A stretch of DNA of 64,000 bases from Elusimicrobiota bacterium (GTDB lineage Bacteria > Elusimicrobiota > Elusimicrobia > UBA1565 > UBA9628), in contig JAGWUP010000002.1 in assembly GCA_028868375.1 (NCBI GenBank), positions 193,015 through 257,014 on the forward strand, given 5' to 3'. The notes under the pieces were generated by a model, which saw only the letters and a program-made list of their open reading frames with translations, did no database searches and was not told the origin of the DNA. The position numbers and the translations under genes were made by a program. Below are positions 2,297 to 46,003 of this stretch, in pieces (within the stretch, counting starts at the first letter, position 1; every line of letters starts with the position of its first letter).

Positions 2297-4978
2297 ATGG
2301 AGGCCAAGCTGGCGCTGGAGAAGGCCTACGACCCCAAGCCGGTCGAGGCCAAGTGGCTTGAGCGCTGGGGGAAGGCCGCGGCCGGCGCCTCGCGGCCCGT
2401 CGGGGAGCGCTCCAAGCGCTTCGCGCTGGTGCTGCCGCCGCCCAACGTCACCGGGGCGCTTCATCTGGGCCACGCCCTCAACGACACCCTGCAGGACGTG
2501 CTGGTCCGCTGGCGTCGGATGCGGGGGGAGGAGGCCTGCTGGGTGCCCGGCACGGACCACGGCGGCATCGCCACCCAGAACGTGATGGAGAAGCAGTTGA
2601 AGGCCGAGGGCATGACCCGCCGCCAGATGGGACGCGAGGCCTTCCTGGAGCGGACGCGGGGCTGGGCCGGAGACTGCAAGGCGACCATCCTCGGGCAGCT
2701 GCGCCGGCTGGGCTGCGCCCTCGACTGGGAGCGCGAGGCCTTCACGATGGACGAGCCGCGGGCACGGGCGGTTTTTGCGGCGTTCAAGGCGCTTTGGGAG
2801 GACGGCTTGATCTACCGCGGCGAGCGGATGGTCAACTGGTGCGTGCGCTGCGGCACGGCCCTCTCCGACATAGAGGTCGAGCACGAGCCGCGGCGCGGCT
2901 GCCTTTGGCATATCCGCTACGGCACCCTGGTCGTGGCGACGACCCGCCCGGAGACCCTGCTCGGCGACACGGCGGTGGCGGTCTCCCCCGAGGATTCCCG
3001 CTACGCGGCGCTGGTCGGCCGCCGGGTGCCGCTGCCGCTGACGGGGCGCGAGATCCCCGTGATCGCCGATGCGCACGTCGACGCCTCCTTCGGCAGCGGC
3101 GCGGTGAAGGTCACGCCGGCCCACGATCCCAACGACTTCGAGATCTGGCGGCGCCATCCCGAGATCGGCGCGCCCCTCCAGGTGATCGGCCCCGACGGCC
3201 GGATCGCCGCGGCCGGCGGCGCCTACGCCGGCTTGTCGCGCGAGAAGGCCCGCGAGAAGATCGTCGCGGACCTTGAGGCCCAGGGCCTGCTGGTCAAGAC
3301 GGAGGACTACCAGAACGCGGTCGGCGTCTGCTACCGCTGCGCCCAGGTCATCGAGCCGCTGCTCTCCTGGCAGTGGTTCGTGCGCATGGGAGAGTTGGCC
3401 GCCCCGGCCCTTGAGGCCGTCGAGAGCGGGCGCTTCGCGCTCCATCCCTCCTCCTGGGCCAAGCCGTACGCCGAGTGGCTCCGGAACATCCGCGACTGGT
3501 GCGTCTCGCGCCAGATCTGGTGGGGCCACCGCATTCCCGTCTGGTACTGCGCGGCCTGCAACAAGATCACTCCGCAGACGGACTTCGGCCAACTGGCCGA
3601 CGCCAAGGTCGTCGTCGCTCAGTCGCGGCCGGCCTCCTGCCAAAGCTGCGGCGGGGCCGACTTCGTCCAGGACCCCGACGTGCTCGACACCTGGTTTTCC
3701 TCCGCCCTCTGGCCGATGTCGGTGTTCGGCTGGCCGCAGAAGACCGCCGAGCTGGCCTTCTACTACCCGACCCAGGTCCTGGTCACCGGCTACGAGATCC
3801 TCTATCTGTGGGTGGCGCGCATGCAGATGATGGGGCTGCGCTTCATGGGCGAGGCGCCCTTCAAGGACGCGGTGATCCACGGCATCGTTCGCGACAAAAG
3901 CGGCAAGAAGATGTCCAAGTCGCTGGGCAACGTCGTCGATCCCCTGGCGATGATGGACAAGTACGGCACCGACGCCCTGCGCTTCTCGCTGATGGCCCAG
4001 GCGCACCCCGGCCGCGACATCCCATTTTCCGAGGACTCGATCACCGGCTCGCGCAATTTCGTCAACAAGCTGTGGAACTCGACCCGCTTCGTGCTGATGA
4101 ACCTGCCGGAGTCGGTCGAGCGGCCCTACGTCCTGGAAGACCTCGACGCCTCCCGCCTGGAGCTGGCCGACCGCTGGATCCTGTCCGAGCAGCAACGCGC
4201 CAGCCAAGCCGCCGGCGAGGCCCTCGAGCGCTACGACGTCGCCGCCGCGGCCGACGCCCTCTACGGCTTTCTCTGGGACGAATTCTGCGACTGGTACGTG
4301 GAGCTGGCCAAGATCCGCCTGCAGGGCGCCGACGGCCCCGACAAGGAGGCCGCGCGGACGATCCTCGTGAGCGTGCTCTCCCGGACCTTGAAGCTCCTGC
4401 ATCCCTTCATGCCCTACGTCACCGAGGAGCTCTTCGCGGCGCTCAAGCCCTACTCCGGGGAAAGCGCCGAACTGCTCCTGCGCTCGCTCGCCCCGCGGCC
4501 GGATACCGCGCGCCGCGATCCCGAGGCCCGCGCGGCGATGGGGCGCTTGATGGAGGCGGTGACGGCGCTCCGCTCCCTGCGCGCCCAGCTCAACGTCCCG
4601 CCGGGGCTGCGCCTGCGCGTCGTCGCCTCCTCCCTGGAGGGCTTGCCCCAGCCGCAGCGAGAGTATCTGCGCGCGCTGGCCCGCGTCGACAGCCTGGAGG
4701 AGGGGCCGCGGCCCGACAAGAGCGCCACCGCGGTCGCCGCCGCCGCCAGCTTCTTCGTGCCGCTGGAGGGCGTCATCGACTTCGCCCAAGAGGCCGCGCG
4801 ATTGCGCCGGGAGCTGGAGAAGGCGCGCCTGGAGCTGGCGAAGATCGCCCAGAAAGTCGACAACCCCGGCTTTCGCGCGCGCGCTCCGCGCTCCGAGGTG
4901 GAGCTGGCCCTCTCCCAGCGCTCCGCCGCCGACGAGCGCGTCGAGCGCCTCAGCCGGACCCTGGCGCTGTTGAGCTGA
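2297..4978 (+). CDS. valS: Valine--tRNA ligase
   Basis: Class I aaRS HIGH motif (PNVTGALHLGHAL), KMSKS motif (KMSKSLGNVVDP), an editing domain and a C-terminal coiled coil. Length of 893 aa is typical for ValS. Confidence 0.95.
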   Translation: MEAKLALEKAYDPKPVEAKWLERWGKAAAGASRPVGERSKRFALVLPPPNVTGALHLGHALNDTLQDVLVRWRRMRGEEACWVPGTDHGGIATQNVMEKQLKAEGMTRRQMGREAFLERTRGWAGDCKATILGQLRRLGCALDWEREAFTMDEPRARAVFAAFKALWEDGLIYRGERMVNWCVRCGTALSDIEVEHEPRRGCLWHIRYGTLVVATTRPETLLGDTAVAVSPEDSRYAALVGRRVPLPLTGREIPVIADAHVDASFGSGAVKVTPAHDPNDFEIWRRHPEIGAPLQVIGPDGRIAAAGGAYAGLSREKAREKIVADLEAQGLLVKTEDYQNAVGVCYRCAQVIEPLLSWQWFVRMGELAAPALEAVESGRFALHPSSWAKPYAEWLRNIRDWCVSRQIWWGHRIPVWYCAACNKITPQTDFGQLADAKVVVAQSRPASCQSCGGADFVQDPDVLDTWFSSALWPMSVFGWPQKTAELAFYYPTQVLVTGYEILYLWVARMQMMGLRFMGEAPFKDAVIHGIVRDKSGKKMSKSLGNVVDPLAMMDKYGTDALRFSLMAQAHPGRDIPFSEDSITGSRNFVNKLWNSTRFVLMNLPESVERPYVLEDLDASRLELADRWILSEQQRASQAAGEALERYDVAAAADALYGFLWDEFCDWYVELAKIRLQGADGPDKEAARTILVSVLSRTLKLLHPFMPYVTEELFAALKPYSGESAELLLRSLAPRPDTARRDPEARAAMGRLMEAVTALRSLRAQLNVPPGLRLRVVASSLEGLPQPQREYLRALARVDSLEEGPRPDKSATAVAAAASFFVPLEGVIDFAQEAARLRRELEKARLELAKIAQKVDNPGFRARAPRSEVELALSQRSAADERVERLSRTLALLS

Positions 4979-5081: not shown

Positions 5082-8000
5082 ATGAAGGTTTCCCCGCGCA
5101 GGGGGCTGTGCGAAAGGGCATTGGCGTTGTTTCTCTGCCTGGCGCTGGCCTATGGCAGCTGGCCTTCCGGGGCCATCGCCGCGGTGGCTTTGCGGCAAGC
5201 GCCGCCAGTGGCGGGGCCCGAGCTCCCCTTCCTTGAGTTGTCCAGCCAGTTGGCGCGCATCGACGTCATCGCCGCGCAGCCGGCGCCGGGGACGCTGATC
5301 TCCTATCTGACCGACGCGATGCAAGCCTCCAGTCCCGCGCAGGCCGCCACGGCGCGCTTGATTTTCCAGGCCCTGAAACGGCCGGACCGAGTCCTGCCGC
5401 GCTTGCGCCGATCGGCGCTGTCCTCCGTCCAACCCCGGCAGGCCATTGCCGAGGTCGAGCGCCTCCAGGAGCTCGTGGAGTCCTATTACGGGAATAAGCG
5501 CGACAAGAGGGCGCTCGCGCAAGCGCTCTTTGCGGCGTCGCGCAAGCTGCGCGAGGCCGGCTTCGTGTTCGACAACCAGGCGCGCGCCGAGGCCGACAGC
5601 CCGGTCGCCGCTGTCGGTGGAGAGACCGCAGAACCCGGAGCGGCGCTCGAGCATCTTCAGCGCTACTATGCCGAGGCGCAGCGCGAGGAGACTCGTGCGC
5701 GGGCCGATCCGCCGTCTCGCACCCCTGTCGATGTCAGGATCGGAGGATTCGAGCCGAAAAATTTCACGAACAATAAAATCCCCATACTCCTAAAAGCGAT
5801 CGCGCAGGTGTATTTCGATATCCGGCACCTTTTTACCCTGGTCCTCGCCCTAGGCCACTACCGCGCGTTTTCGGGCATGACACAAGGCGTGATGACGCGC
5901 CTTTTCATCGACGGCGACAACTCGAAATACGTGCTTGGCTTTGAGCCCAGCCCGACGCCGAACGCCTGGGTCATTCCAGATCAGACCGTCGAAAGGACTC
6001 CCATCGGGGTCCACCTGGGCTTGCTGCCTTTCCTAGGCAACGAGGATGAGTATGCCGGCGTGCTGGCCCACGAGCTTACGCACCGCAACAAGCAACAAGG
6101 CAAGGCGCTCGCGGATGACCCCCGGATCGCGCGCGTTCTGGAATCCGTGGAGGGTTACGGCGATTTGGCCCCGAAGCAGCGCGAGGAGCTTCGCGCCGAC
6201 CTCGGCGGCGTCGACCGGCTGATCCGCGCGGGCTATAACCCCTGGGCGATGTACGACCGGGAGAAGCGCGTGGGCCGCTTCTTCTCGAAGTCGATGGATC
6301 TTTGGTTGACGCGCCAGATATTCAAGATATTCCATGGGCGGACCTTCGACTATATCGAGGCCCACCCGGCCAGCGAGATCCGCATGGCCGCGATCAAGGC
6401 GTATATCTTGGACCGGGGATTCCGCGAGGATCTCTCCGACGCCACCAAGCGCTACCAGCCGCTCTCTCCCGGTATTGTCTTGCTGCGCGAACGCATCCGC
6501 CTCCTCGCCTTTCCCTTCGTCTCGCCCTGGGTTTCCTACGGCATCATCGCCTATTGCGGGCTCATCGGCGCCCAGGGCATCCTGGGCTTGTTTCATCTTG
6601 CGGCGGCGAGCGCCATGGTTTCAAGGGCGCTCGGCGAGCTGGCCGGAGCTGTCCATGCGCTCTCGGGATCGGCACACCACTTTTTAGCGCCGGTTTCGGC
6701 TCTCATCAAAGCCGTGCTCTTTAAGACGCAGACGGTTATACGGGGGTTTACTTCTCATGTAATTTATCACGTGAGTCGTCAGGCGGGTCACTTTATAAGC
6801 CACGTCGTGTCGGATGTAATCGTATCGATGATGGGGATTGTCGTCGTTGCAGGTATCCCCTGCCTGCTCATTACCGTAAACTACCAAGAAGCCAAGGAAC
6901 ACGGCCTTTTGTACTTGCGATTCATGACCAGGCGGCTGACGAAGAGGGTCGAGCGTGGGGAAAAACGGGGGACGATCGAGCCGGAGAAGATTGCCCGCCT
7001 GCTCGCGATCAACACCACCCTTCTAAAGAAGATACCGGAGGCTTACAGACGGAGCGATTGGATGGTACGCCTTATAGGCGGCTTGAATGCCACGCGCCGT
7101 CGCGCCCTGCGCGCGCAGCAGGCCCTTCTCGAGCTTGCCGCGGCAAGGGTGTCGGAGCTGCCGGAGGATCAGCGGCCAAAGGCCCTGGCCAAATTCGAGG
7201 CGATCCTGGAGCGCATGCCCGCCTATGCGTACGCCGCAGGGGGAATCGCCTCCGCGACGGAGGGATTGCTCTCGGCCGGCGGGGAAGCTCGGGTTGACGA
7301 GGAAGCCACGGGCAGCGCGCAGCGCAGGCTGCGGCTGCTGCGACGCGTCCGCTCCTACGGCAGAGACGCCGATGCGGGCGCTGTCTTTAAGAGCGCCCAG
7401 GACCTGGCCCAAGAAGGCCTCTACGACCTGGCCAGGCGCCTGCTCAACGCCCACCGGACGCGCCTGCTGGCGCATATCTTCTCTCCCGCCGGCGATGACC
7501 CGGAGGGAGGCAGAGCCTTCGCGAAGCTGCACGAGGATGTCGCGTCGAGGACGGACTCGCACTTCGTTCATAAACGGCCGTTTTGGCCGAGGCTGTGGCG
7601 CAATTTCCCGTATTTGCGGGCGCGGATCAATCTCGCGGCGACCCCGATCGGCGGACGATTGTGGCTGGCCTCGCTTTCTCCCGAGGTCGCGCGCGCGGCG
7701 CCCGCGGCGTTTTCCGTCCTGTCTCCGGGAGCATGGCTGCAGCGTTTCGATCGTTGGGCGCTGCGGCGCTATCTCTCAAAACGGATCTCGTCGATCCGGC
7801 AGCTTTCCGAGTTCGTCGACGGCCTTAAGCGCGACAACATCCTGGTGGACAATCTCTCCACGGAGATCCAGGCTGTCATCGTGCGGCATCCGGAGTGGAT
7901 CGAGTCCGACGCTGACTTGAGCTATCTTATCGCCGACGAGGCGTTCTGGCCCAAATTCGGCGCCACGACGCCCGGGCCCCTCGAGGCGATGCTCGTCGCC

Positions 8001-10187
8001 TCCGTGAAGTCCTACGCCCAGCGCTTCCCGGACATCTGGAAATTCGATCCGGGTTCCTCAGAGAAGCTGCAGTCCTATTATCTCGCCGGGCTAAGGAAGC
8101 TGGGAGAATACCCCGGAACATGGGAGGGCCGCCGCCGGCTCTGGCGCCTGCTGGTCACGCGCGGCGTCACGAGCGCGACGGACGCCCTTTTTAGCGAGCT
8201 CTACCGGGAGGCTCCCGCGGGAAAGATTGGCGAGCTGGAGGAAGAAGCGCTGGGCGGGAGAATCTGGGAGCAGGGGCTTAAGGCCGGCATCGTCGAAAAC
8301 AGGATCAAGGCGACGCGGGACTACCGGCGGCTTCTGCTCTCTCGCTCTCCGACGGAGCGCGAGGCCTTGCTGCGCAAGCTCCTGGCCGCCGTGCAGGCGG
8401 AGTTTCCCGAACGCAGCGTCCAATACGTCGAGCTCTTGGAGCGGATGTCCCGAGAGATCGATTCCAGCCAGCAGGAGAGCCGCCTGATTCACGAGGCCAA
8501 GACGATCCGCAGCGGCGAGCGCTCCGAGGACTTCGGCCTGCGCGTCTTTTCCGAGCTCATCACGGAGGCCGTCGGTTGGAAGCGGCGCGAGCAGTGGGAC
8601 CTCGTGCTCTTCCTGCGCGGCGACATCCCGGCCACGCGCAAGATCCAGCGGGCCTTCCGCTCGATCGGTCCCGAGCGCGTGCGGCGCCTCTACGAGGTGA
8701 CGCCCGTGCTGGCGCGCGCCGGCATTCTGGATTCCTTCCTCGATTCTCCCAAGGGATTGTTGGCTAGCCTCGACATCGATCGCGGCTACGCCAAGGTGAT
8801 CATCGACCACGTCCTTCCCGGCGGCGATCCGGCCGCTCGCGAGGTGGCGCACCAGATTCTAGAGGGATTCCTCTACTCGCTTAAAAAAACCGGCAACGGC
8901 GCCCTCCAAAGCTACGTCCTGTCGTATCTCTTGGCCCTGCCGCCGGAAGGCTCCGCCTCGGTGGGCAAGGTCCTCAAAGGCGTGCTGGAGATCTTCGGGA
9001 CCACGGGCGTCAAGATCGGCCAGTTCCTGGCGGCATCGCAGCTTCTGCCGGAATCGGAGACCGCGGAGCTGCGCCAGCTGCAGGAGCACGCCAACGAGCC
9101 CGAGCGAGAGGAGGTGTACTCCGATTTGCGCGCGATCACGGGCAGGCCGCTTCCCTTCGCCCTCAAGGAGATCCTCGGCGCGGCATCGATCAAGTATGCC
9201 GTGCGCGGAGTCGAGACCGGCACGCAGCAGGAGTTGGCGCTCAAGGTCTTCCGATTGGAGGCCGTGGCGCATACCAGAGCGGAGTTCGAGCAGCTCGACG
9301 CGATGGCGCGCTACCTGCGTCGCCGCTTCGGCGCCCGTTACGGCGTGTTCATGGCCATCGTCAAGGCCGCGCGCAAAGCGGTGGAGAGGGAGCTCTCCGC
9401 CGAAGGCGAGATCGCCAACGGACGCCAGGCCGCGGAGACGGTTTACAGCGGCGCTTCGGACAAGGCGGTGGACGTCGCGGTTCCGCGAGAAGCGCTGCTT
9501 CATTCGCGCCTCATCGCCAGCGAATTCGCCCAGGGAACGTCCTTCTTCGACCTTGATCCCGCCTTGAGGCCGCTGGCCGCGGCGAAGATACTGTCCATGG
9601 AAGGAAACAATTTGTTCGGGGATGCTCCAGAGATCCACCTCGATCCGGACCGGCACGCCGGCAACTACCGCATCCAGGTCGTCGAGGAGCCGGCCGGGCC
9701 GAGGCTGCGGATTCGGCCCATCGACCACGGCCAGGGCCTCGCGCTGACGCGCGCCCGGCGCGAGCAGATATTCGAGCTCTTCGCCCTGGCGCAGATTCTC
9801 GCCCGCACCGGCTCGACGCGCTGGGGCGTGGACCGAATCTCTTCCGTCCTGGGGCTTGGGGAGGCGGCCAAGCGGCGGCTTGGCGGAAGCCTCGACGATT
9901 TTTTCACGGGAGAGGAACTGCGCCCGGTGGCGGCTTACTATTCGCTTCTCGCGGTTCTTGAGGAGTCCGGGCACGAGATGGACATCGTCTATTTCGATTT
10001 CGTGCGCGGCATCATCCAGCTCGGCCAATACGAACCCTTTGCCCCGCCTGGAACGCCGCTTCCCAGCGCGCGCCTCGAGGCGGAGACCCTCCGCCGCACC
10101 AAGAGGCTGGAGGCGTCCCTGCGGCTCTCGTGGCCGGAGAAAGCCCGTATTCTCGCCCGGCGGATTAGCGCCAGAAGCAACTGGTAG
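5082..10187 (+). CDS. Giant (1701 aa) secreted/membrane multidomain protein with an M48/M56-like Zn-metalloprotease module, a TM block and a C-terminal ABC1/UbiB-type atypical kinase-like domain
   Basis: Signal-peptide-like N-terminus (LALFLCLALAYGSWPSGAIAA). HExxH motif at HELTHRNKQ (nt ~6070) followed ~36 aa later by REELRADLGG...AGYNP (M48-type third ligand/ExxAD motif). Hydrophobic TM segments at ~6480-6900 (IVSMMGIVVVAGIPCLLITV). UbiB/ABC1 motifs at nt ~9000-9740: VKIGQFLAASQLLPE...LRQLQE, AASIKYAVRG...ALKVFR, HLDPDRHAGNYRI and IDHGQ. Confidence 0.6.
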   Translation: MKVSPRRGLCERALALFLCLALAYGSWPSGAIAAVALRQAPPVAGPELPFLELSSQLARIDVIAAQPAPGTLISYLTDAMQASSPAQAATARLIFQALKRPDRVLPRLRRSALSSVQPRQAIAEVERLQELVESYYGNKRDKRALAQALFAASRKLREAGFVFDNQARAEADSPVAAVGGETAEPGAALEHLQRYYAEAQREETRARADPPSRTPVDVRIGGFEPKNFTNNKIPILLKAIAQVYFDIRHLFTLVLALGHYRAFSGMTQGVMTRLFIDGDNSKYVLGFEPSPTPNAWVIPDQTVERTPIGVHLGLLPFLGNEDEYAGVLAHELTHRNKQQGKALADDPRIARVLESVEGYGDLAPKQREELRADLGGVDRLIRAGYNPWAMYDREKRVGRFFSKSMDLWLTRQIFKIFHGRTFDYIEAHPASEIRMAAIKAYILDRGFREDLSDATKRYQPLSPGIVLLRERIRLLAFPFVSPWVSYGIIAYCGLIGAQGILGLFHLAAASAMVSRALGELAGAVHALSGSAHHFLAPVSALIKAVLFKTQTVIRGFTSHVIYHVSRQAGHFISHVVSDVIVSMMGIVVVAGIPCLLITVNYQEAKEHGLLYLRFMTRRLTKRVERGEKRGTIEPEKIARLLAINTTLLKKIPEAYRRSDWMVRLIGGLNATRRRALRAQQALLELAAARVSELPEDQRPKALAKFEAILERMPAYAYAAGGIASATEGLLSAGGEARVDEEATGSAQRRLRLLRRVRSYGRDADAGAVFKSAQDLAQEGLYDLARRLLNAHRTRLLAHIFSPAGDDPEGGRAFAKLHEDVASRTDSHFVHKRPFWPRLWRNFPYLRARINLAATPIGGRLWLASLSPEVARAAPAAFSVLSPGAWLQRFDRWALRRYLSKRISSIRQLSEFVDGLKRDNILVDNLSTEIQAVIVRHPEWIESDADLSYLIADEAFWPKFGATTPGPLEAMLVASVKSYAQRFPDIWKFDPGSSEKLQSYYLAGLRKLGEYPGTWEGRRRLWRLLVTRGVTSATDALFSELYREAPAGKIGELEEEALGGRIWEQGLKAGIVENRIKATRDYRRLLLSRSPTEREALLRKLLAAVQAEFPERSVQYVELLERMSREIDSSQQESRLIHEAKTIRSGERSEDFGLRVFSELITEAVGWKRREQWDLVLFLRGDIPATRKIQRAFRSIGPERVRRLYEVTPVLARAGILDSFLDSPKGLLASLDIDRGYAKVIIDHVLPGGDPAAREVAHQILEGFLYSLKKTGNGALQSYVLSYLLALPPEGSASVGKVLKGVLEIFGTTGVKIGQFLAASQLLPESETAELRQLQEHANEPEREEVYSDLRAITGRPLPFALKEILGAASIKYAVRGVETGTQQELALKVFRLEAVAHTRAEFEQLDAMARYLRRRFGARYGVFMAIVKAARKAVERELSAEGEIANGRQAAETVYSGASDKAVDVAVPREALLHSRLIASEFAQGTSFFDLDPALRPLAAAKILSMEGNNLFGDAPEIHLDPDRHAGNYRIQVVEEPAGPRLRIRPIDHGQGLALTRARREQIFELFALAQILARTGSTRWGVDRISSVLGLGEAAKRRLGGSLDDFFTGEELRPVAAYYSLLAVLEESGHEMDIVYFDFVRGIIQLGQYEPFAPPGTPLPSARLEAETLRRTKRLEASLRLSWPEKARILARRISARSNW

Positions 10188-18618: not shown

Positions 18619-21213
18619 GGGCTGTAACGGGGTTGGCAGTCCCAGCTCTTGGCGAACGATGTCCTCGATGGCGGAACGCAGCTCGGGATTTTCCGCGGGC
18701 AGCAGGCGCTCCACGACCAGGGGATAGATCGCCTCGAGAAGCTCGCGGGAGGGATTGGCGATGAAATCCAGAGTCTGCTTGCGGCGCTCCTCCATCGGCA
18801 GCGGGGAGTCTGGTTTAAAGAAAGCTCCGAAGTCGCCGGCCGAGCGGCCGCGGCCGTCGGCGGTGACGAAGGCGTTCTCGCTATGGGCGTCTGTCATGTT
18901 GTCCCGGCTGCCGCTCCAGCCCGTCATGTGGGCCAGCATCATCGCCGCGGCGTTGCCGGCCAGGACGGTCGGCGCGGCCAGGTCCAGCGGCAAGGGCAGC
19001 CAGTCAACAAGTTTGCCGGTGTTTCTCAAGCGCTTGCCGTCCTCGTAGCGAAAGATCATCAGGCCCAGGGGATTGGATCTCGTAAAACGACGGAGGCGTC
19101 CGTAGAGGCGCAGAGTGCCCGTCCATTGCCCGAAAAAGAGGGGCTCGGGAGCCAGGCCGGGGCCCTCGCCCTGCGGGGCGTTTAGGAGCTCTTGGGCGAC
19201 TTCGAAGTGGGCCGGACTGATCCAGTCGCGGCCTTTCTCCTGGCCCGGCATCTTCAGCTCGACGGCGTAGCCGCCGGCGCCGGCCAATTGCATCCTGCGG
19301 AAGCTTTCGCTGACGGGATTGACCAGCAGCTTGCCGAGGGCGTATTGAAAGCCCTTGCGCTCGGACCAAGCCATCGTCGGCAGCGCGGAGGCGTTGGCGA
19401 GATTGTAGGGAACGGCCATGCGCAGGAAGCTCAGGGCGGTCAGGAAGACGGAGAGCCTGGCGCCGTGGCCCAAGATCAATGAGAGCTGGGGCAGTTGCCG
19501 CCACATTTGATCCTTCGCCCCGTGGCCCCAACGCTTCCGGCCCAGGGGTTTGAGCCCGCCGGAGCCGTTGGCCGAGGAGAGCAGGCGAGCAAGCCGTCCC
19601 CAGAGGGCGACCAGCGCCGAATTGACCCCCGCCCAATCCACTCCGAGGCTGACGGCCAGGCGCTTCAGCTCCTGCTCCGAGCCTTCCAGCACGATTCGCG
19701 CCAACCCGTCTAGGGCTTCGGAGCGCGCCTGCTCATCGACTTGCGGGACCATGGCCTGTAGCCGCAGCGACGGCAGCCAGATCTTGTGGATTTCCCCGGA
19801 TTGGCCAGGGACGGAATGGGCCAGATGGAGCCGGCCGGCCGGCTCCATGCCTAGGGCCACGGCCGGCTTGTCGCTGGCGAAGACCAGGCTCTTCTCCTCG
19901 CCGTCGCGGGGATCGACGAGCAACAATTTGTTGCCGGAAACGGCGATCAGCCTGCCGTCCGGGGAGAAGCCCAGCGGCCCGTAGCCGGACAGCGGCGCGG
20001 CCCTTTGGTAAATCCTCCGGCCGCTCTGTACGTCCCACAGGGAGAGAAGGCTCTTGCCGTTGTCATCGCTGGACAGCACCGCCAGGCGCCTGCCGTCGGC
20101 GGAGAAGACGGCATGGGTGGGCGACCACCAGTCGGAGCCATTTCTGTCAAACCCGGTTCTGAAAATCTGCCGGCCGTCCGCGTCATGGACGGCCAGGGTC
20201 TTCGAGTTCCAGTGGCTGGTGACGAGCGCGCGGCCGTCCGGGGAGATGGCCAGCGGGAAGCCGGGCAGGCTGCTTTGGCCCAGCAGTCTGCCGCCGGCGA
20301 GCTCCCAGGAGGCCAGGACGCTGTTGTCGTCGCTGTCGTAGGCGGCCAGCAGGCGGCCGTCGCCAGAAAAGCGCATGGCCATGGCGTCTTGAAAGCCCAT
20401 CACGCCCAACGTAGGCTCGGCAAGCCAGCGGATGGGGCCGCCGGGATTGTCGAGGTCGAGCAGCCCGACCTGGGAGGCCTCGTTGGACAGGGCCATCAGG
20501 ACGCCGTCCTCGCTGAACGCTCCGTTGCCGATCGCTGCCTCCTCGCCCGTCAGGTCGCGGAGAATCTTGTTCGACCTCGTGTCCCAGAGGGCGGTCCGTT
20601 CCTTGGACATCTCCAGCAGCAGCGAGCCGTCGGGCGAGAGGATGGTGCGCCCGCCGCCGCCGGACTTCGCGTCGATGAACGAGTCACTAGCTTCCCAGTG
20701 ATCCGCCAGCAGGGCGTCGAGCAGCGCGCCCTCGTGGGCCCGGCGCAGGTGGGCGAGGAAGGAGCGGATCAGGCGGGGCGCCTTGAGCGCCGATTGAGGG
20801 GCAAAGCCCAGGGCCCGCGCCTGCCCCCTGGTCAGCCGCGAGGCGGCGGCTCCGGACGTCAGCTCCCGGTGCAGAAGAAACTGGACCAGCTTGTCCTCGA
20901 CCCCGCGCCGCTGCAGGCGGGCGAATTTCTCCAGCTTCGCGTAGTCGCCGGGCTCGAGAGACGGGGCCCGGCTCAGAGTGATCCCCTGCTCCGCGATGGC
21001 GCCGGCGGCGGCGTCGAGATGGTAGCTCTGGACCTCGCTTAGGGCCGGCGGCAGGCTGGGGGCGACGGCCTCGGGCTGGGCCATCGCCTCCGGTTGGGCC
21101 AGCGCCGAGGACGGCGCCAGGCTTGCCAGAGCCAGGAAGCAGCAGAGAAGCAAGCGCGTCAGCACTGGAATATGATAGCGGCCGCTCAACGCGCGCGAGC
21201 GCCGGCTACTCAT
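18613..21213 (-). CDS. Secreted beta-propeller (WD40/TolB-like) repeat protein, 866 aa, with a C-terminal domain of unknown function
   Basis: Signal peptide (LLLCCFLALASLAPSSALA). Multiple SPDG/SxDG blade motifs (ILSPDGSLLL, AISPDGRALV, VFSADGRRLAV, GFSPDGRLIAV). The ~300-aa C-terminus has no recognisable motif. Confidence 0.6.
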   Translation of the reverse strand: MSSRRSRALSGRYHIPVLTRLLLCCFLALASLAPSSALAQPEAMAQPEAVAPSLPPALSEVQSYHLDAAAGAIAEQGITLSRAPSLEPGDYAKLEKFARLQRRGVEDKLVQFLLHRELTSGAAASRLTRGQARALGFAPQSALKAPRLIRSFLAHLRRAHEGALLDALLADHWEASDSFIDAKSGGGGRTILSPDGSLLLEMSKERTALWDTRSNKILRDLTGEEAAIGNGAFSEDGVLMALSNEASQVGLLDLDNPGGPIRWLAEPTLGVMGFQDAMAMRFSGDGRLLAAYDSDDNSVLASWELAGGRLLGQSSLPGFPLAISPDGRALVTSHWNSKTLAVHDADGRQIFRTGFDRNGSDWWSPTHAVFSADGRRLAVLSSDDNGKSLLSLWDVQSGRRIYQRAAPLSGYGPLGFSPDGRLIAVSGNKLLLVDPRDGEEKSLVFASDKPAVALGMEPAGRLHLAHSVPGQSGEIHKIWLPSLRLQAMVPQVDEQARSEALDGLARIVLEGSEQELKRLAVSLGVDWAGVNSALVALWGRLARLLSSANGSGGLKPLGRKRWGHGAKDQMWRQLPQLSLILGHGARLSVFLTALSFLRMAVPYNLANASALPTMAWSERKGFQYALGKLLVNPVSESFRRMQLAGAGGYAVELKMPGQEKGRDWISPAHFEVAQELLNAPQGEGPGLAPEPLFFGQWTGTLRLYGRLRRFTRSNPLGLMIFRYEDGKRLRNTGKLVDWLPLPLDLAAPTVLAGNAAAMMLAHMTGWSGSRDNMTDAHSENAFVTADGRGRSAGDFGAFFKPDSPLPMEERRKQTLDFIANPSRELLEAIYPLVVERLLPAENPELRSAIEDIVRQELGLPTPLQPE
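21178..21211. repeat. 34-bp perfect direct repeat, copy 2
   Basis: Identical to 18585..18618. It contains the TAG stop of the kinase gene and, in another frame, the first 11 codons (MSSRRSRALSG) of the beta-propeller gene. Confidence 0.9.
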
Positions 21214-23560
21214 GGGCCCTTGGTTTTGCGGCGGCTGAGCTTGCGTCTTTGTAGCCGTCGAAATGCAGGCGCTTCAGGATGTCCACAGCCGACTCTTTTA
21301 GCCTTCCCGTTTTGTGGGTGGCTATTCCCGTCAGCGTTTCAGGGCCGCCCGCTTCGGTGAAGAGCCGTTTTAATTCGCTCTCCGCCTGCTGCGGGCCGGC
21401 GCCGCCGCCGGCGATTTCCCGATGGATATCCCGCAGTATTCCGTCGAGAGCCTCCAACGCTTTCTCCCGGGTTCCGTTGTTCAGCTCGTCGTCCTGGGCG
21501 CGCTGGATTTGATGGGCCAGGCCCAGCAGCCATATGTGCCGCCGCGGGAGATCCTCCTTCGCCATGAGATACTTCAGCCAGCGAAAGAACGTCTCGTAGT
21601 CGTCGCCGTGGCCGCGCCAGGCCTGCAGGCCGGCCTCGAGGATCAGCGGCGAAAGCGGCGTTGCTCCCGGCTCCAAGCCTTCTTTGAGCTGCTCCGAGCG
21701 TCGCACCATCATCAGGACAAGCGTTTGGTAGACCGCTTTCGCGGCTTCCGGGTGCCAGGTCGTGAACTCGGCCAGCAGCAGCAGGTCGTCGAGGGTTTGC
21801 GGCGTGATCTCGCGGTGCCGGTAGAGGGAAATATAGTTGGCGAGCGCCGGGATGGGCGTGGTTCCATAGTCGGAGAGGAGCTTGTTGACGATGAAGCATA
21901 AGAGTTCGCGCAGCGAGGAGGCTTGCTGATCGTCGATCGTATGGCCGTGGCCCCAGAATGCGATCGCGGCCAGACTTTCTCTGTATACGGCGTCCAAGCC
22001 GTCAACGCGTTCCGGCTGTTTTGGAAGGCCCAGGTAGAAGTCCGCCATCTCGGCGCTAGTGCCGGGGTCCATCAGAGACTCAAGCCCTGATTTTCCGCGT
22101 CGCCGCATCCCCCAACGCCGCAGGGGCGCCAAATAGTTGGGCGCGGCCAGACCGGCCGACGTAGTTGTCAGGGCAAGACCATCGAAGAGAAATTTTAGAA
22201 GAGATGTAGATGATGGATCAACGTAACCCGAGAATAAGCAGCCCATCCAGACAACCACCCCGACAGCAGCACCGAGTCCAGCTTTACCACCTGATGTCCA
22301 ATGCATTTCGGAGGCCTTCTCCCGAAGTAGCGGCTTTCGTCGCGTGGCCGCTGGATTCTTTATGAACCCAAGCTGAATTGGACTCCCTAGAGCTGCCTGC
22401 GGCAAAATCGCAGTCCGCTCCAACGCTCGCTTGAACTCGCCGGCCGATTGAAAGCGCAGCTCGGGGCCAAGCCGCGTCGCTTTTTCGATGGCGGCTTGAA
22501 CCGCCGGGGAGACGCCGCGCATCGCCTTGGCGTCCGGCCTGCCAAACTGCGGCGGCGGCTCCAGTCCGGTCACCATCGTATACAGCAGCCAGCCCGCGCT
22601 ATAGACGTCGCTTCTTGCGTCGGTCTGGCTCTTGCCCCATTGCTCCGGCGCCGCGAAGCCCGGGGTGCCCAGCGCCACCGTGTCTGACTTCTGCCCGGGC
22701 TTTAATTTCCTGCCGGCCCCGAAATCGATCAGCTTAGCTCCGGACTCGCTTAAGATCACGTTGCCGGGCTTGAGGTCGCGATAGATCACGCCCACGCCTT
22801 TCCGGTGCATCGCTTCCAGGGTATCGAGCAGCGCGCTGATCACGCCGACGGCCTCGCCCTCGCCCATCCTGCCCCGATTAAGCCGCTGCTCCAGCGTCTG
22901 GCCGGGGAAATACTCTTCGACCAAGTACGGCGGCTCGTGCGATTGCTCGTATGCCCTGGGTTCCGGGATGTTGGGAACACCGGCTCGATTTAACTTTTGC
23001 AGCAACAGAAATTCGCCGCGAAGGGCGGCGCCGGCGTCTTCGGGGCTTATGCCGTTGCCAGTGTTGCCGAGGGCGAGCTTCAATGCATGGCTGCCGCCAT
23101 CGGGACCGTGGACCTTTAAGACGGTGGACATTCCGCCCGCGCCCAACAACTCGTCAACGACGAATTCTCCTATGCTATCGCCAGGCCGCGGGACCGCGCC
23201 ATGCCAATGAGAGACCTCCCCATCGACCAACCGCCGGACTTCCCTTGCGGGAGCGTCGGGGGATGGCCTCGCTGCTTGGAGGCGCGCCGAGCCTACGGCC
23301 GCGGGGAGAGCGGCCGGCGCCGGCGCCGGCAGCCCGGCTGCCGGCGTATAAGATAACGGCGCGGGCGGGAAAGGGACGCCGGGGCGATCGACGGCGCTGT
23401 CTTGCAAGCCCGGCATCCGTCCCGGCACGGAGACGATCGGCGCGTAGAGCGCGGCCGGGATCACGGGGCCTTCTTCCTCGATCGCGGCCAGCGCGGCCTG
23501 CGGCCAGATCAAGGCTAGGCAGAGGGCGGCGGCCAGCAGGCGGCGCAAGGAGGCCAGCAT
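21206..23560 (-). CDS. Hanks-type Ser/Thr protein kinase with N-terminal signal peptide, an internal TM segment and a large C-terminal domain
   Basis: Signal-peptide-like start (LLAAALCLALIWPQAALAA). Kinase motifs: GxGxxS-like (ELLGAGGMSTV), VAIK-like (HALKLAL), HRD (IYRDLKPGNVIL), DFG (LIDFGAGR) and APE (GTPGFAAPE). A hydrophobic TM segment follows (AGLGAAVGVVVWMGCLFSGYV), and then ~330 aa of uncharacterised domain. Confidence 0.8.
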   Translation of the reverse strand: MLASLRRLLAAALCLALIWPQAALAAIEEEGPVIPAALYAPIVSVPGRMPGLQDSAVDRPGVPFPPAPLSYTPAAGLPAPAPAALPAAVGSARLQAARPSPDAPAREVRRLVDGEVSHWHGAVPRPGDSIGEFVVDELLGAGGMSTVLKVHGPDGGSHALKLALGNTGNGISPEDAGAALRGEFLLLQKLNRAGVPNIPEPRAYEQSHEPPYLVEEYFPGQTLEQRLNRGRMGEGEAVGVISALLDTLEAMHRKGVGVIYRDLKPGNVILSESGAKLIDFGAGRKLKPGQKSDTVALGTPGFAAPEQWGKSQTDARSDVYSAGWLLYTMVTGLEPPPQFGRPDAKAMRGVSPAVQAAIEKATRLGPELRFQSAGEFKRALERTAILPQAALGSPIQLGFIKNPAATRRKPLLREKASEMHWTSGGKAGLGAAVGVVVWMGCLFSGYVDPSSTSLLKFLFDGLALTTTSAGLAAPNYLAPLRRWGMRRRGKSGLESLMDPGTSAEMADFYLGLPKQPERVDGLDAVYRESLAAIAFWGHGHTIDDQQASSLRELLCFIVNKLLSDYGTTPIPALANYISLYRHREITPQTLDDLLLLAEFTTWHPEAAKAVYQTLVLMMVRRSEQLKEGLEPGATPLSPLILEAGLQAWRGHGDDYETFFRWLKYLMAKEDLPRRHIWLLGLAHQIQRAQDDELNNGTREKALEALDGILRDIHREIAGGGAGPQQAESELKRLFTEAGGPETLTGIATHKTGRLKESAVDILKRLHFDGYKDASSAAAKPRAHE

Positions 23561-29036: not shown

Positions 29037-29330
29037 CTAGTGTAGTGAATCATAAATCCCTTTGCATTTGGAGGCCCAATCCCGAGACGATTTCCAGGAG
29101 CGACGACCGAGAATAGCCGCAGCTATTTGAGGGAGAAGCGACGCAGAAATGGGCCGGGATTGGGCCTCCCCTGACTCTGAAGTCTTGATTGGGGAGGGGC
29201 AGCGCCATTTCGCCCGCCTGGCTTCGTTGCTCGTCGCTTGCATAGCTTAGGCTATGCGCGCTCCTCGCGCCTCGCCAGGCGCCAAACTGGCGCTGCCAAA
29301 TGCAAAGGGATTTATGATTCACTACACTAG
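29037..29330. mobile_element. MITE-like element (294 bp) with perfect 35-bp terminal inverted repeats
   Basis: The TIR ctagtgtagtgaatcataaatccctttgcatttgg (29037-71) pairs with ccaaatgcaaagggatttatgattcactacactag (29296-29330). The interior shares the family core (cgttgctcgtcgcttgcatagcttaggctatgcgcgctcctcgc, compared with cgtcgttcgtcgctcgcata... in the other copies). Confidence 0.6.
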
Positions 29331-30967
29331 AGCGAGCGCGACAGGAGGATCAGGGCCGCGCCGGCGAGAAGGACCAGCCACCACCAGGAAGGCCGCGGCT
29401 TGGCGGCCAAACCGCGCAGCCACAGCCACCAGGCTTGCCAGCGCGGCTGGTCGCGGTTGAACCGCCCCGGCGGGGGAGGCGTGCCGTGCTCGACGGCGGC
29501 GGGCAGGGCCCGAACCTGCTTGGGCGACAGGCCCATCTGGGAAGCCAGCGCCATGACCTGCTGGCGCTCCGCCATCGTCAGCTCGCGCCCGCTCATGCCG
29601 AGCATCCGCGCCACTTTTTCCTCGACGGCGGACATCGCGGGCGAGGCGTTCTGCGGCAGTTGATCCAGGGCGTCGGCGATCTGGGGGCCATCCGTGGAGC
29701 CGTCGTTGGAGGCGTCCTTGAGCATCTTCTGGATGTCGGCCAGCTCCTTTTTTTCCTCGTCGGTCAGCTCGTCGGAGCCGTTGTCCTGCTCGCCGCCCTG
29801 TGAGGCCTGTCCCGACTGCGCCGAGCCCTGAGCGCCGTGCAATCCCCCCGGCGCCAGATCCGTTCCCCCGGAGTCCTCGCCGGGCTGCGGCGCCATGCCG
29901 GAGGCGGTTCCGGCCGCGCCCGAGACCGCCGCCCCCGAGTAGGCGCCTCCTGCTGCGGCCCGGCCGGCGGGGGTCGCTGCGCCGGAAGCGTAGCCGCCTC
30001 GGCCTGCGGCATAGCGCTTGGCGCCGCGGCCGGCCGGAGAATAGCCCGTTGCCGAGGATGTTCTTGCTCCTCCGGGCATGGAGCCGTGGCCGCCGGCGCG
30101 GCGGCTGCCGCCGTTAAGCGCCCGGAAGGCCGCCGCTCCCGCGTTGGGGCCGGCCAGATTGTCCTGCTTCAAGCCGAAGCCGCGCTTGGCCTGATCGGCC
30201 GCCTCTCCGCCGAGAGCGGCTCCCTCGCCTCCGCCGGCCGGATGGCCGCTGACGCTGTCTCCGCCGCCGCCGGAATCGGTGGAGCCGCCCCCGTCGCTCG
30301 AGCCTCCCTCGTCCGCCGAGCCGCCCGCATCGGAGGGGGCGCCGGAGCCTCCCGTCCTCCCTGCGGCCGGAGTTCCGCCGGGCGAGACGGTCCGGTTGGC
30401 GGCCGGGGCCTTGTCCTTGGCGGCCGGAGGGGGAGCGGTTTCCGGCGGCCCGTTTTGTTGGCGGTCTAGGTAGGCCCTGGCGGCGCGGAGATTCCCCAGG
30501 TTTCTGTTGGCGATGTCATTCAGGTCGCCTGCATTAAAATTTTTGGCGCCGACCAGGGCATCCACGATGTTTTTCCTCTCTAAGCTGTCGGGCGGCAACG
30601 GCTTGGGCAGGGCCTGGGCCAGGTTAGGATATTGCGTGGCCAAGAGTTGGTATGTCTTGTTGTCTTGCGCGATCTGCTTCGGGGTGAGCGGCTGGTCGAA
30701 TGCTGCCGGTGGCGCGGGCTCGCCCGCTAGCTCATGCAGGAGCAGGTTGGTGACGGCCAGGCGGCGGTAGGTCAGCTCGTCGCCTGTAAGTAGAACCTGG
30801 TTTCCATCGGCATCGGTCCGGCTCTCGTAGAGGCCGCTGTCGTACTGGGGCAGGAATTGCTTGATTTCCGCCAGGAGCTTCTGTTGGGTGTCCGTCTCCG
30901 CCGCATGGGCCGAGGCGCCCAGCAAGGCGACCAAAAGCAGCGCCGCGCGCATGAGGATCCGCGTCAC
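29327..30967 (-). CDS. Secreted low-complexity Gly/Ser/Ala-rich protein with a C-terminal hydrophobic anchor (546 aa)
   Basis: Signal peptide (MRAALLLVALLGASAHA), an ordered N-terminal ~190 aa, then a long GGS/GSA-rich tract and a C-terminal W-rich TM segment (WQAWWLWLRGLAAKPRPSWWWLVLLAGAALILL). Confidence 0.5.
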   Translation of the reverse strand: MTRILMRAALLLVALLGASAHAAETDTQQKLLAEIKQFLPQYDSGLYESRTDADGNQVLLTGDELTYRRLAVTNLLLHELAGEPAPPAAFDQPLTPKQIAQDNKTYQLLATQYPNLAQALPKPLPPDSLERKNIVDALVGAKNFNAGDLNDIANRNLGNLRAARAYLDRQQNGPPETAPPPAAKDKAPAANRTVSPGGTPAAGRTGGSGAPSDAGGSADEGGSSDGGGSTDSGGGGDSVSGHPAGGGEGAALGGEAADQAKRGFGLKQDNLAGPNAGAAAFRALNGGSRRAGGHGSMPGGARTSSATGYSPAGRGAKRYAAGRGGYASGAATPAGRAAAGGAYSGAAVSGAAGTASGMAPQPGEDSGGTDLAPGGLHGAQGSAQSGQASQGGEQDNGSDELTDEEKKELADIQKMLKDASNDGSTDGPQIADALDQLPQNASPAMSAVEEKVARMLGMSGRELTMAERQQVMALASQMGLSPKQVRALPAAVEHGTPPPPGRFNRDQPRWQAWWLWLRGLAAKPRPSWWWLVLLAGAALILLSRSL

Positions 30968-45286: not shown

Positions 45287-46003
45287 ATGATCAAGGCCGT
45301 CATCTTCGACATCGACAACACCCTGACCGACTTCATGAAGATGAAGCGGGCGGCGGTGGATTCGGCGGTGGAGGGGATGATCGACGCCGGGCTCAAGGTC
45401 GAGAAGACCGCGATGGTCGAGAAGATCTTCGACCTATACTGGAAAGAAGGCGTCGAGGACCAGAAGATATTCGACAAGGTCCTGGCCAAGGAGTTCGGCG
45501 GCATCGACTACAAGGTGCTGGCGGCCGCCATCATCGGCTACCGGCGCGCCAAGGCCGGGACGATGGCCCTCTATCCCCACGTCGGCTTGACCCTGGCCGA
45601 GCTGATGAAGATGGGCATCCGCATCGTGGTCGTCAGCGACGCGCCGCGCCTGGAGGTCTGGCTGCGCATCGTCAGCCTCGGCTTGCAGCACTCCTTCGAC
45701 CGCGTGATCACCTCCGAGGACACCGGCTTTAAGAAGCCCAACCCCGCCCCGTTTCGCAAGGCCCTGGAGGCGCTGGGCACCAAGCCGCGGGAGACGCTGA
45801 TGGTGGGCGACTGGGCGGAGCGGGACATGGCGGGGGCGAGGGCCTTGGGCATTCGCACCGCCTGGGCCAAGTACGGCGACACCTTCGACACCAAGGAGGC
45901 CGGCGCCGAGTTCGAGTTGGACGACATCTCACAACTGGTCGGGATCATCCGCTCCGAGAACGCCGGCAAGCCGCGGCGGGCCAAGGCGGCCGCGTCCCGG
46001 TGA
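45287..46003 (+). CDS. HAD-superfamily hydrolase
   Basis: Motif I VIFDIDNTL (DxD), motif II VVVSD, motif III K (FKKPNP) and motif IV MVGDWAERD. Confidence 0.7.
   Translation: MIKAVIFDIDNTLTDFMKMKRAAVDSAVEGMIDAGLKVEKTAMVEKIFDLYWKEGVEDQKIFDKVLAKEFGGIDYKVLAAAIIGYRRAKAGTMALYPHVGLTLAELMKMGIRIVVVSDAPRLEVWLRIVSLGLQHSFDRVITSEDTGFKKPNPAPFRKALEALGTKPRETLMVGDWAERDMAGARALGIRTAWAKYGDTFDTKEAGAEFELDDISQLVGIIRSENAGKPRRAKAAASR

Follow-up and report, generated by a model that had tools for sequence, protein, structure and literature searches.

The question raised by this locus is what a single bacterial protein does with a zinc protease followed, in the same chain, by a kinase-like domain, and on which side of the membrane the two modules are located. 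The protein, of 1701 amino acids (aa), is encoded in a 64,000-nt stretch of DNA from an Elusimicrobiota bacterium (contig JAGWUP010000002.1), and this whole stretch is called the window in what follows. From its N-terminus it consists of a predicted Sec-type signal peptide, a variable linker, an M48 core, two hydrophobic segments, a helical region and an ABC1/UbiB kinase-like domain (Table 1). An earlier note on this DNA had described it as a giant secreted protein of undescribed architecture, and the motifs quoted there are all present, namely HELTH (aa 330-334), REELRAD (367-373) and AGYNPW (383-388) in the protease part, and VKIGQ (1310-1314), ALKV (1386-1389), HLDPDRHAGN (1519-1528) and IDHGQ (1547-1551) in the C-terminal part. 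What is probably new is that two known enzyme folds are combined in a conserved, uncharacterised architecture with an unexpected probable location. Our tentative reading is that the protein belongs to an undescribed family of giant, near-cysteine-free proteins with a Sec signal, in which both enzymes would lie outside the cytoplasm.

The first enzyme is an M48 zinc metalloprotease. The Pfam profile Peptidase_M48 (PF01435, cut-off 20.3 bits) was matched with 29.8 bits by the whole protein and with 33.2 bits by its N-terminal fragment. The core contains H330-E331-xx-H334, E369 within REELRAD, AGYNPW, and H428-P429..E432..R434, and among close homologues H330, E331, H334, E369 and H428-P..E..R434 are invariant. 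The only sequence match in the PDB was the M48 peptidase 3c37 (E = 6e-4), in an alignment that spans both HExxH and the E-x-x-A-D/AGYNP region. In an AlphaFold2 model of aa 225-640, confidence was 70-93 in the protease core and below 50 in the hydrophobic block. A Foldseek search with this model returned 3c37 first (E = 9.5e-5) and then BepA (6ait, 6sar), the membrane-embedded ZMPSTE24 being a much weaker structural match (E about 1). Judged from its motifs and modelled fold, the core appears catalytically complete and of the soluble, periplasmic BepA/3c37-like type. The earlier assignment to an "M48/M56-type" peptidase can thus be kept for M48, which is supported by Pfam, motifs and fold, and not for M56, since no Pfam match to the M56 family (BlaR1/MecR1) was obtained even at E<=10 and the nearest folds are soluble periplasmic M48 peptidases. 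An HtpX-like topology, with a membrane-spanning helix at aa 239-257, was also considered and rejected, as this helix is short and amphipathic and is modelled inside the M48 core.

With its best sequence and fold matches, BepA/YfgC of E. coli and the Geobacter protein Q74D82 (PDB 3c37), the domain shares HExxH, the downstream Glu in E-x-x-A-D, the H-P-x-x-x-x-R motif and a position behind a signal peptide. Unlike BepA, the window protein has no TPR domain (no TPR profile was matched, and the BepA equivalog NF052400 gave 11.8 bits against a cut-off of 570) and extends beyond the M48 domain with hydrophobic segments and about 1100 residues. It also differs from BepA and 3c37 in that half of its family lacks the catalytic motif.

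The second enzyme is a divergent member of the UbiB/ABC1 family. The best NCBIfam match of the C-terminal domain was TIGR01982 (UbiB), with E = 7.8e-11 over aa 1291-1492. The Pfam ABC1 profile PF03109 (cut-off 22.9 bits) gave no match on the window protein; its cut-off is passed by relatives whose alignment with the window protein runs from one end to the other, namely P0002 and P0007-P0010 in precomputed annotations and the related loci L016, L018, L025 and L026, with 53.4, 49.6, 76.8 and 79 bits, respectively. The catalytic residues, assigned by motif alignment, are K1311-x-G-Q1314, the Ala-rich loop beginning at G1366-AAS, K1388, E1435/E1437, D1523..N1528 and D1548. K-x-G-Q and the Ala-rich loop, which define the ABC1/UbiB family in the structures of COQ8A/ADCK3, are conserved family-wide here, the loop reading LGAASIKYA (aa 1365-1373) in the window protein. 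An AlphaFold2 model of aa 860-1701 reached a predicted local distance difference test score (pLDDT) of 81.9 and a predicted template modelling score (pTM) of 0.73. Its best matches among PDB folds were the COQ8A structures 7udq, 5i35 and 4ped (E = 3.5e-8 to 2.2e-7, target template modelling score 0.59-0.62), followed by MSMEG_1954 and Rv3197; these three proteins make up the top 12 matches (E = 3.5e-8 to 5.5e-5), and ordinary protein kinases were matched only at E>=1e-3. On account of the NCBIfam match, the PF03109-positive relatives, the signature motifs and the fold of the model, the ABC1/UbiB assignment proposed in the earlier note holds. The domain would therefore belong to this family as a divergent branch that, from its scores, does not appear orthologous to the UbiB of the quinone pathway, and all its nucleotide-binding and catalytic motifs seem to be kept.

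In addition to the kinase-like fold, the K-x-G-Q N-terminal extension is shared with COQ8A/ADCK3, E. coli UbiB, Mycobacterium tuberculosis Rv3197 and MSMEG_1954, and so are the Ala-rich loop that replaces the Gly-rich loop, the D-x-H-x-G-N catalytic loop and I-D-[F]-G. Unlike in these proteins, the domain is cysteine-free, comes from Elusimicrobiota and Bdellovibrionota and not from the housekeeping gene of the quinone pathway, and stands at the C-terminus of 1701 aa, behind a signal peptide, an M48 domain, a hydrophobic pair and a 670-aa helical region. The latter, aa 601-1274, gave no Pfam match. It was modelled as helices with a confidence of about 75-90 over aa 880-1274, carries the conserved motifs HPEWI, FWPK, WKYEPGxSEK and RGVTSxTD, and is kept in metagenome relatives as well.

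The occurrence of this architecture was assessed by an exhaustive profile search with aa 860-1695 of the window protein and P0001-P0003 against 1.84 billion representative sequences. At E thresholds of 1e-3, 1e-10 and 1e-30, it returned 687, 291 and 123 representatives, respectively. Nearly all full-length matches were proteins of 1400-2600 aa, and the profile matched in their C-terminal half. A word-indexed homologue search found only a handful of relatives, and one made with an N-terminal alignment found only two BepA-like proteins; a scan of genome contigs with the full-length alignment, which relied on generic M48 patterns, gave among the matches listed only distant M48 genes (Fimbriimonas, Burkholderiales and others). 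P0001 is a full-length homologue (41% identity, 99% coverage), P0012, from an Elusimicrobiota metagenome-assembled genome (MAG), is 54% identical, and P0006, a partial sequence from a MAG labelled "[Elusimicrobia bacterium]", is 100% identical to aa 615-1642. Named members come from Elusimicrobia/Elusimicrobiota, "Bdellovibrionales bacterium", "Bacteriovoracaceae bacterium" and "Proteobacteria bacterium SG_bin7". The Bacteriovoracaceae, which are predators, belong to the phylum Bdellovibrionota. From sequence comparison, about a hundred clusters appear to share this order of modules, and the database clusters of the family number at least 90. The layout is therefore not unique to this genome, and its members carry generic database labels ("M48 family metalloprotease" or "AarF/ABC1/UbiB"); the claim that it is not a described architecture stands in the sense that, in the literature searched, we found no paper on an M48-ABC1 fusion, nor one on an exported UbiB-family protein.

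The same data bear on a simpler explanation, namely that the protein is an ordinary quinone-pathway UbiB with extra N-terminal sequence, or a fusion produced by misassembly or read-through. TIGR01982 being the best NCBIfam match would agree with the former, and the annotation of the M48 and ABC1 halves as two adjacent genes at two loci (L027:7837-12685 and L028:5113-9637) would agree with the latter. Nonetheless, we regard this explanation as hardly credible, since score, extra length and recurrence across contigs effectively refute it. In fact, the UbiB equivalogs were missed by a wide distance (41.2 bits against a cut-off of 487.55 for TIGR01982, 17.7 against 667 for PRK04750), and the window protein has about 1270 extra residues; the scenario that the earlier note had named as its own refutation, an ordinary cytoplasmic UbiB with an N-terminal helix, does not apply for these reasons. 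Moreover, only 687 of 1.84 billion representatives were reached at E<=1e-3, from which it would follow that the abundant canonical UbiB proteins were largely not among them. As for an artefact, the fused order runs uninterrupted in dozens of independent contigs, and the related loci span 33-70% GC. At L027, the conserved R-x-x-W-D-x-x-L motif carries on in the other frame ahead of the second ATG, which makes the split a frameshift inside conserved sequence. On this sequence evidence, the two-gene versions resemble a fused gene that a frameshift has split, the break in L027 being either an assembly error or a pseudogene. The contig of L028 is named "2x", and low coverage is possible there.

The two modules have not been conserved to the same degree. 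Of the 168 sequences collected, 92 contain an M48-like domain according to a local hidden Markov model (HMM) of the protease domain; HExxH is kept in 50 of these 92 domains and lost in the other 42, where it is replaced by sequences such as AKGLA, IRALE or LQIER. K-x-G-Q, the Ala-rich loop, the beta3 Lys, D..N and the metal-binding Asp are instead kept across more than 100 diverse members, a natural experiment in which the protease motif has repeatedly been lost and the kinase motifs retained. Since half of the family has lost HExxH and kept the kinase motifs, the pattern suggests that the constant part of the function resides in the kinase-like module, and that in many members the M48 fold may serve only as a binding module. 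The SG_bin7 MAG encodes two paralogues, P0043 (1677 aa), which has no HExxH, and P0038 (2100 aa), in which the local HMM alignment does not cover the HExxH columns.

This conservation also bears on the idea that the UbiB-like domain is a scaffold or pseudo-enzyme, without nucleotide turnover, which would bind lipids or ligands as part of a protease complex of the envelope, whatever its location. The domain is indeed very divergent, to the point that the window protein has no PF03109 match and that a PDB search with the kinase-domain family profile found no COQ8 sequence or other kinase and only chance matches (E>0.1). In addition, the Phe of the DFG-like motif is replaced by His in the window protein and by Gln in P0001, and UbiB proteins are known to bind lipids and phenolic ligands. 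Catalytic motifs kept across more than 100 diverse members would nevertheless be unusual for a dead enzyme, the more so in a family in which catalytic residues that are not needed do decay, as in the case of the protease motif. We therefore consider a scaffold role improbable.

The location of the M48 domain is suggested by the N-terminus. This comprises a positively charged n-region, a hydrophobic core and a cleavage-type A-I-A site, and its n-, h- and c-regions are conserved. N-termini of the same kind, with a small-x-small site after the hydrophobic core, are found in four of four close homologues, and a crude signal-peptide rule was passed by 57 of 100 full-length members of the family. 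By hydropathy and site pattern, the signal peptide reported in the earlier note is therefore a probable one, and it is conserved in homologues. Because such N-termini are conserved, and in line with the BepA-like nature of the domain, the M48 domain is very probably exported.

Whether the kinase half follows it depends on the hydrophobic block. What had been seen as a cluster of transmembrane helices is a real hydrophobic block, although it contains only two segments, H2 (aa 483-506) and H3 (aa 579-597), separated by a 72-aa connector. H2, in which W483 and G502 are invariant among close homologues, fails the summed biological-hydrophobicity threshold (about +3 kcal/mol when summed by hand), whereas H3 has a summed apparent free energy of -0.7. 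The segments come as a pair, the strength of which varies widely among close relatives and is often only marginal, and this speaks for export of the C-terminal half. Eight of the 72 residues of the connector are His in the window protein; in P0001, P0002, P0003 and P0012 it consists of short Trp/Pro-rich repeats, and those of P0001 (KPVWDH, APIWTH, SPAWEA, IPWEHF) resemble membrane-interface motifs.

Two further observations suggest that the kinase half is exported too. The first concerns relatives without later hydrophobic segments. In 13 full-length relatives the N-terminus is signal-peptide-like, no other segment has a hydropathy of 1.3 or more, and the catalytic loop is kept; these include the close relatives P0016 and P0018, each of which scores about 1000 bits against the family profile. 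At a threshold of >=1.6, a later segment is missing from 26 of the 57 relatives with signal-peptide-like N-termini. The second is the near-absence of cysteine. The window protein has 4 Cys (positions 10, 19, 492 and 594), all of which are in hydrophobic segments, so that its soluble sequence of about 1600 aa is free of Cys. In the C-terminal 1000 aa of the family the median Cys content is 0.05%, as compared to 1.1% in the other genes of the window, and at 8 of 10 related loci it is 3-30 times lower than in neighbouring ORFs.

We thus favour, with due reserve, export of both enzymes over a layout in which the kinase half stays inside. According to this reading, the whole polypeptide would be exported by Sec, and the block formed by H2, the connector and H3 would be a hairpin that tethers the protein to the membrane or inserts it there, so that protease and kinase-like module would both come to lie outside the cytoplasm, on one side of the membrane. 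At the membrane or envelope the protease may cut proteins, and the UbiB-like module may bind or process a lipid or a protein by using a nucleotide. Since we know of no source of ATP in the periplasm, full activity would most plausibly be reached in or on another cell, or else would draw on a nucleotide source as yet unknown.

Several points weigh against this reading. Conserved catalytic residues imply the use of a nucleotide, for which the periplasm has no known ATP source. With H3 strong and H2 weak, the translocon would more probably stop only at H3 and leave the kinase in the cytoplasm. The charges point the same way, as Lys and Arg are enriched after H3, with a net charge of +2.7 over 30 aa as compared to -0.1 before it; moreover, P0001 has, after the kinase domain, a further transmembrane segment whose positive flank is on the kinase side. 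In P0001 and P0002, Cys is missing from either side of this extra segment, and Cys depletion is therefore not a pure marker of compartment. Finally, our topology and signal-peptide assignments rest on simple hydropathy and charge counts. "Secreted", the term of the earlier note, is thus plausible for the protein; for the kinase half the evidence conflicts, with relatives lacking segments and low Cys on one side, and a strong H3 and the need for ATP on the other. To our knowledge, every UbiB/ABC1 member studied so far works on a membrane from the cytoplasm or the matrix, and known UbiB/ABC1/ADCK members are cytoplasmic or face the matrix.

The extra segment after the kinase domain and the roughly 350 aa of helical repeats that follow it, HEAT-like by eye, form a cysteine-free extension of P0001 (aa ~1700-2085), P0002 (~1710-2055) and P0015, which the window protein lacks.

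The same points speak for a receptor-like, bitopic protein, which we hold to be a possible arrangement, though a less probable one than export of both enzymes. Here the signal peptide would be cleaved, the M48 domain, H2 and the connector would be periplasmic, H3 would be the sole membrane span, and the helical region and the UbiB-like domain would be cytoplasmic; substrate binding or cleavage by a periplasmic M48 or pseudo-M48 domain would then be coupled across the membrane to a kinase or ATPase. H3 is in fact the only segment above the biological hydrophobicity threshold in the window protein, P0001, P0002 and P0004, while H2 stays weak throughout the clade, with Kyte-Doolittle values that are typically 0.4-1.7. 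The 30 residues after H3 are Lys/Arg-rich across the clade, with 5.55 K+R per 30 aa, and the clade net charge is +3.0 before H2 and -0.95 after it; in our reading, however, the Lys/Arg content after H3 may exceed by only a modest amount that of the Arg-rich middle region in general. The positive-inside rule taken alone would place both large domains in the cytoplasm, an outcome that conflicts with the conserved signal peptide and was treated as non-decisive. A cytoplasmic location would supply ATP to a domain in which all the ATP-binding and catalytic motifs are conserved, and the repeated loss of HExxH would suit a sensor role of the outer domain. A receptor-like layout is harder to reconcile with the 13 signal-peptide-like relatives that have no later hydrophobic segment at all, P0016 and P0018 among them, and with the 26 of 57 that have none at >=1.6, in which the kinase would be exported. 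Nor does it agree with the exclusion of Cys, which covers the supposedly cytoplasmic 1100 aa family-wide and holds in comparison with the genomic neighbours.

If this layout were right, it would share with BlaR1/MecR1 (M56 plus sensor) and with PknB-type receptor Ser/Thr kinases the logic by which a membrane helix connects an extracytoplasmic binding or catalytic domain with an enzyme in the cytoplasm, a coupling that is hypothetical here, and would represent a new type of bacterial transmembrane signalling protein. Unlike these proteins, the window protein matches neither the M56 nor the Pkinase profile, and the protease of BlaR1 is on the cytoplasmic side, so that the arrangement could be likened to BlaR1 in reverse.

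Export of both enzymes, the reading that we prefer, can be pushed one step further, to a secreted branch of UbiB/ABC1 proteins, which would be the first. Such cysteine-free giants would be exported by Sec, released or delivered by contact, and inserted into a prey or host membrane by the marginally hydrophobic hairpin and its Trp/Pro-rich connector. The UbiB-like module, together with an active M48 domain in half of the family, would then be exposed to the target cell, and with ATP drawn from the victim the UbiB-like module could modify lipids or proteins of the membrane or pull them out of it. This proposal would fit the enrichment of the family in predatory Bdellovibrionota and the neighbouring giant protein with a signal peptide in the window. 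We nonetheless judge it unlikely, and the effector role suggested in the earlier note is speculation. Were it true, a new class of membrane-targeting weapons or of envelope-remodelling enzymes would exist in predatory bacteria and some Elusimicrobiota.

A limited likeness exists in this respect to large secreted toxins, such as the large clostridial toxins and diphtheria toxin, which have an internal hydrophobic insertion region. Like them, the window protein is very large, has enzymatic modules on either side of a marginally hydrophobic helical pair and contains almost no cysteine; unlike them, it shows no sequence or fold similarity to any of these toxins and no recognised receptor-binding domain or delivery system, and the comparison is an analogy only.

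The mechanism of the UbiB/ABC1 family, an ancient one with links to human disease, is debated, its members being seen as protein kinases, ATPases or lipid chaperones. In this context, a family of about a hundred clusters deserves attention in which the UbiB-type domain is permanently fused to an exported M48 protease or pseudo-protease and, in some members, is apparently exported itself; export of the kinase domain, if true, would extend where and how the UbiB fold is used. The only link between the two families that we found in the literature is provided by plant plastoglobules, where ABC1K kinases and the M48 protease PGM48 are located at the same lipid-rich compartment (PMC8956952). These are separate proteins of a eukaryotic organelle, neither fused nor exported, and the analogy is a functional one only.

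Table 1. Features of the M48-ABC1 gene and of the encoded protein (nucleotide positions refer to the window).
Feature	Residues (aa)	Position	Strand	Basis and remarks
Complete ORF	1-1701	5082..10187	+	ATG start, 1701 aa plus stop codon, uninterrupted
Predicted Sec-type signal peptide	1-33	5082..5180	+	Hydropathy; n-region MKVSPRR, hydrophobic core, A-I-A then A
Variable linker	34-246	5181..5819	+	Ala/Arg/Pro/Gln-rich; poorly conserved, length varies in homologue alignment
M48 zinc-metalloprotease core	247-475	5820..6506	+	Pfam PF01435, motifs, 3c37 match, model
Hydrophobic segment H2	483-506	6528..6599	+	Weak; Kyte-Doolittle 19-mer maximum 1.71
Amphipathic connector	507-578	6600..6815	+	72 aa, His-rich; model confidence <50
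Hydrophobic segment H3 (VIVSMMGIVVVAGIPCLLI)	579-597	6816..6872	+	Strong; Kyte-Doolittle 2.71
All-helical middle region	601-1274	6882..8903	+	Family-specific; conserved from about aa 900
Divergent ABC1/UbiB kinase-like domain	1275-1701	8904..10184	+	TIGR01982, motifs, PF03109 in relatives, model

The gene lies 104 nt downstream of the valyl-tRNA synthetase gene (2297-4978) and 143 nt upstream of an ORF of 2493 aa on the same strand. Two patches of low GC content that had been noticed in it are real (0.47 at 5740-5850 and 0.49 at 6700-6900, as compared to a window mean of 0.676). They overlap stretches that encode hydrophobic and Lys/Asn/Ile/Phe-rich peptides; GC content at the second codon position (GC2) is 0.26-0.32 there, and that at the third position (GC3) is also lower (0.57-0.63), so that the patches are partly due to amino-acid content. 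GC3 of the whole gene is 0.81, whereas it is 0.88-0.95 in housekeeping neighbours. Comparably low values were found in the downstream giant gene (0.78) and in a Ser/Thr kinase gene at 21206-23560 (0.74). The evidence for the foreign origin proposed in the earlier note is thus weak: the patches are in part driven by amino acids, adjacent genes share the lower GC3, and recent transfer is not supported because the nearest relatives are likewise high-GC or Elusimicrobiota sequences. The composition would suit an accessory gene, or one acquired long ago.

Along 5082-23560, GC3 is 0.81, 0.78, 0.86 (a WD40/beta-propeller gene at 18613-21213) and 0.74 in successive genes, below that of the surrounding housekeeping genes, and the region may be an accessory one. 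A search for promoters and terminators gave nothing beyond the expectation from shuffled sequence, PADLOC matched no defence system, and a tblastn search with ten neighbours of the gene in the window gave no match in the related loci L016-L026.

The 2493-aa ORF (10331-17812, + strand) has a signal-peptide-like N-terminus, an internal hydrophobic block and Pro/Ala-rich linkers. It had no match in Pfam or PADLOC and no similarity to the M48-ABC1 family; it contains the sequence "GVCRHKS...HLFLVVDWDG", which may resemble a transglutaminase-like Cys-His-Asp core.

Among the related loci, L026 (647-13078) encodes a 4143-aa ORF in which the ABC1 domain (79 bits) is accompanied by GNAT acetyltransferase and methyltransferase-like domains and by three HExxH motifs; here a kinase-like domain of this type belongs to a giant protein of another layout. 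Within the window, two further ORFs are cysteine-free, one of 546 aa at 29327-30967 (- strand) and one of 238 aa at 45287-46003 (+ strand), and they may encode exported proteins as well.

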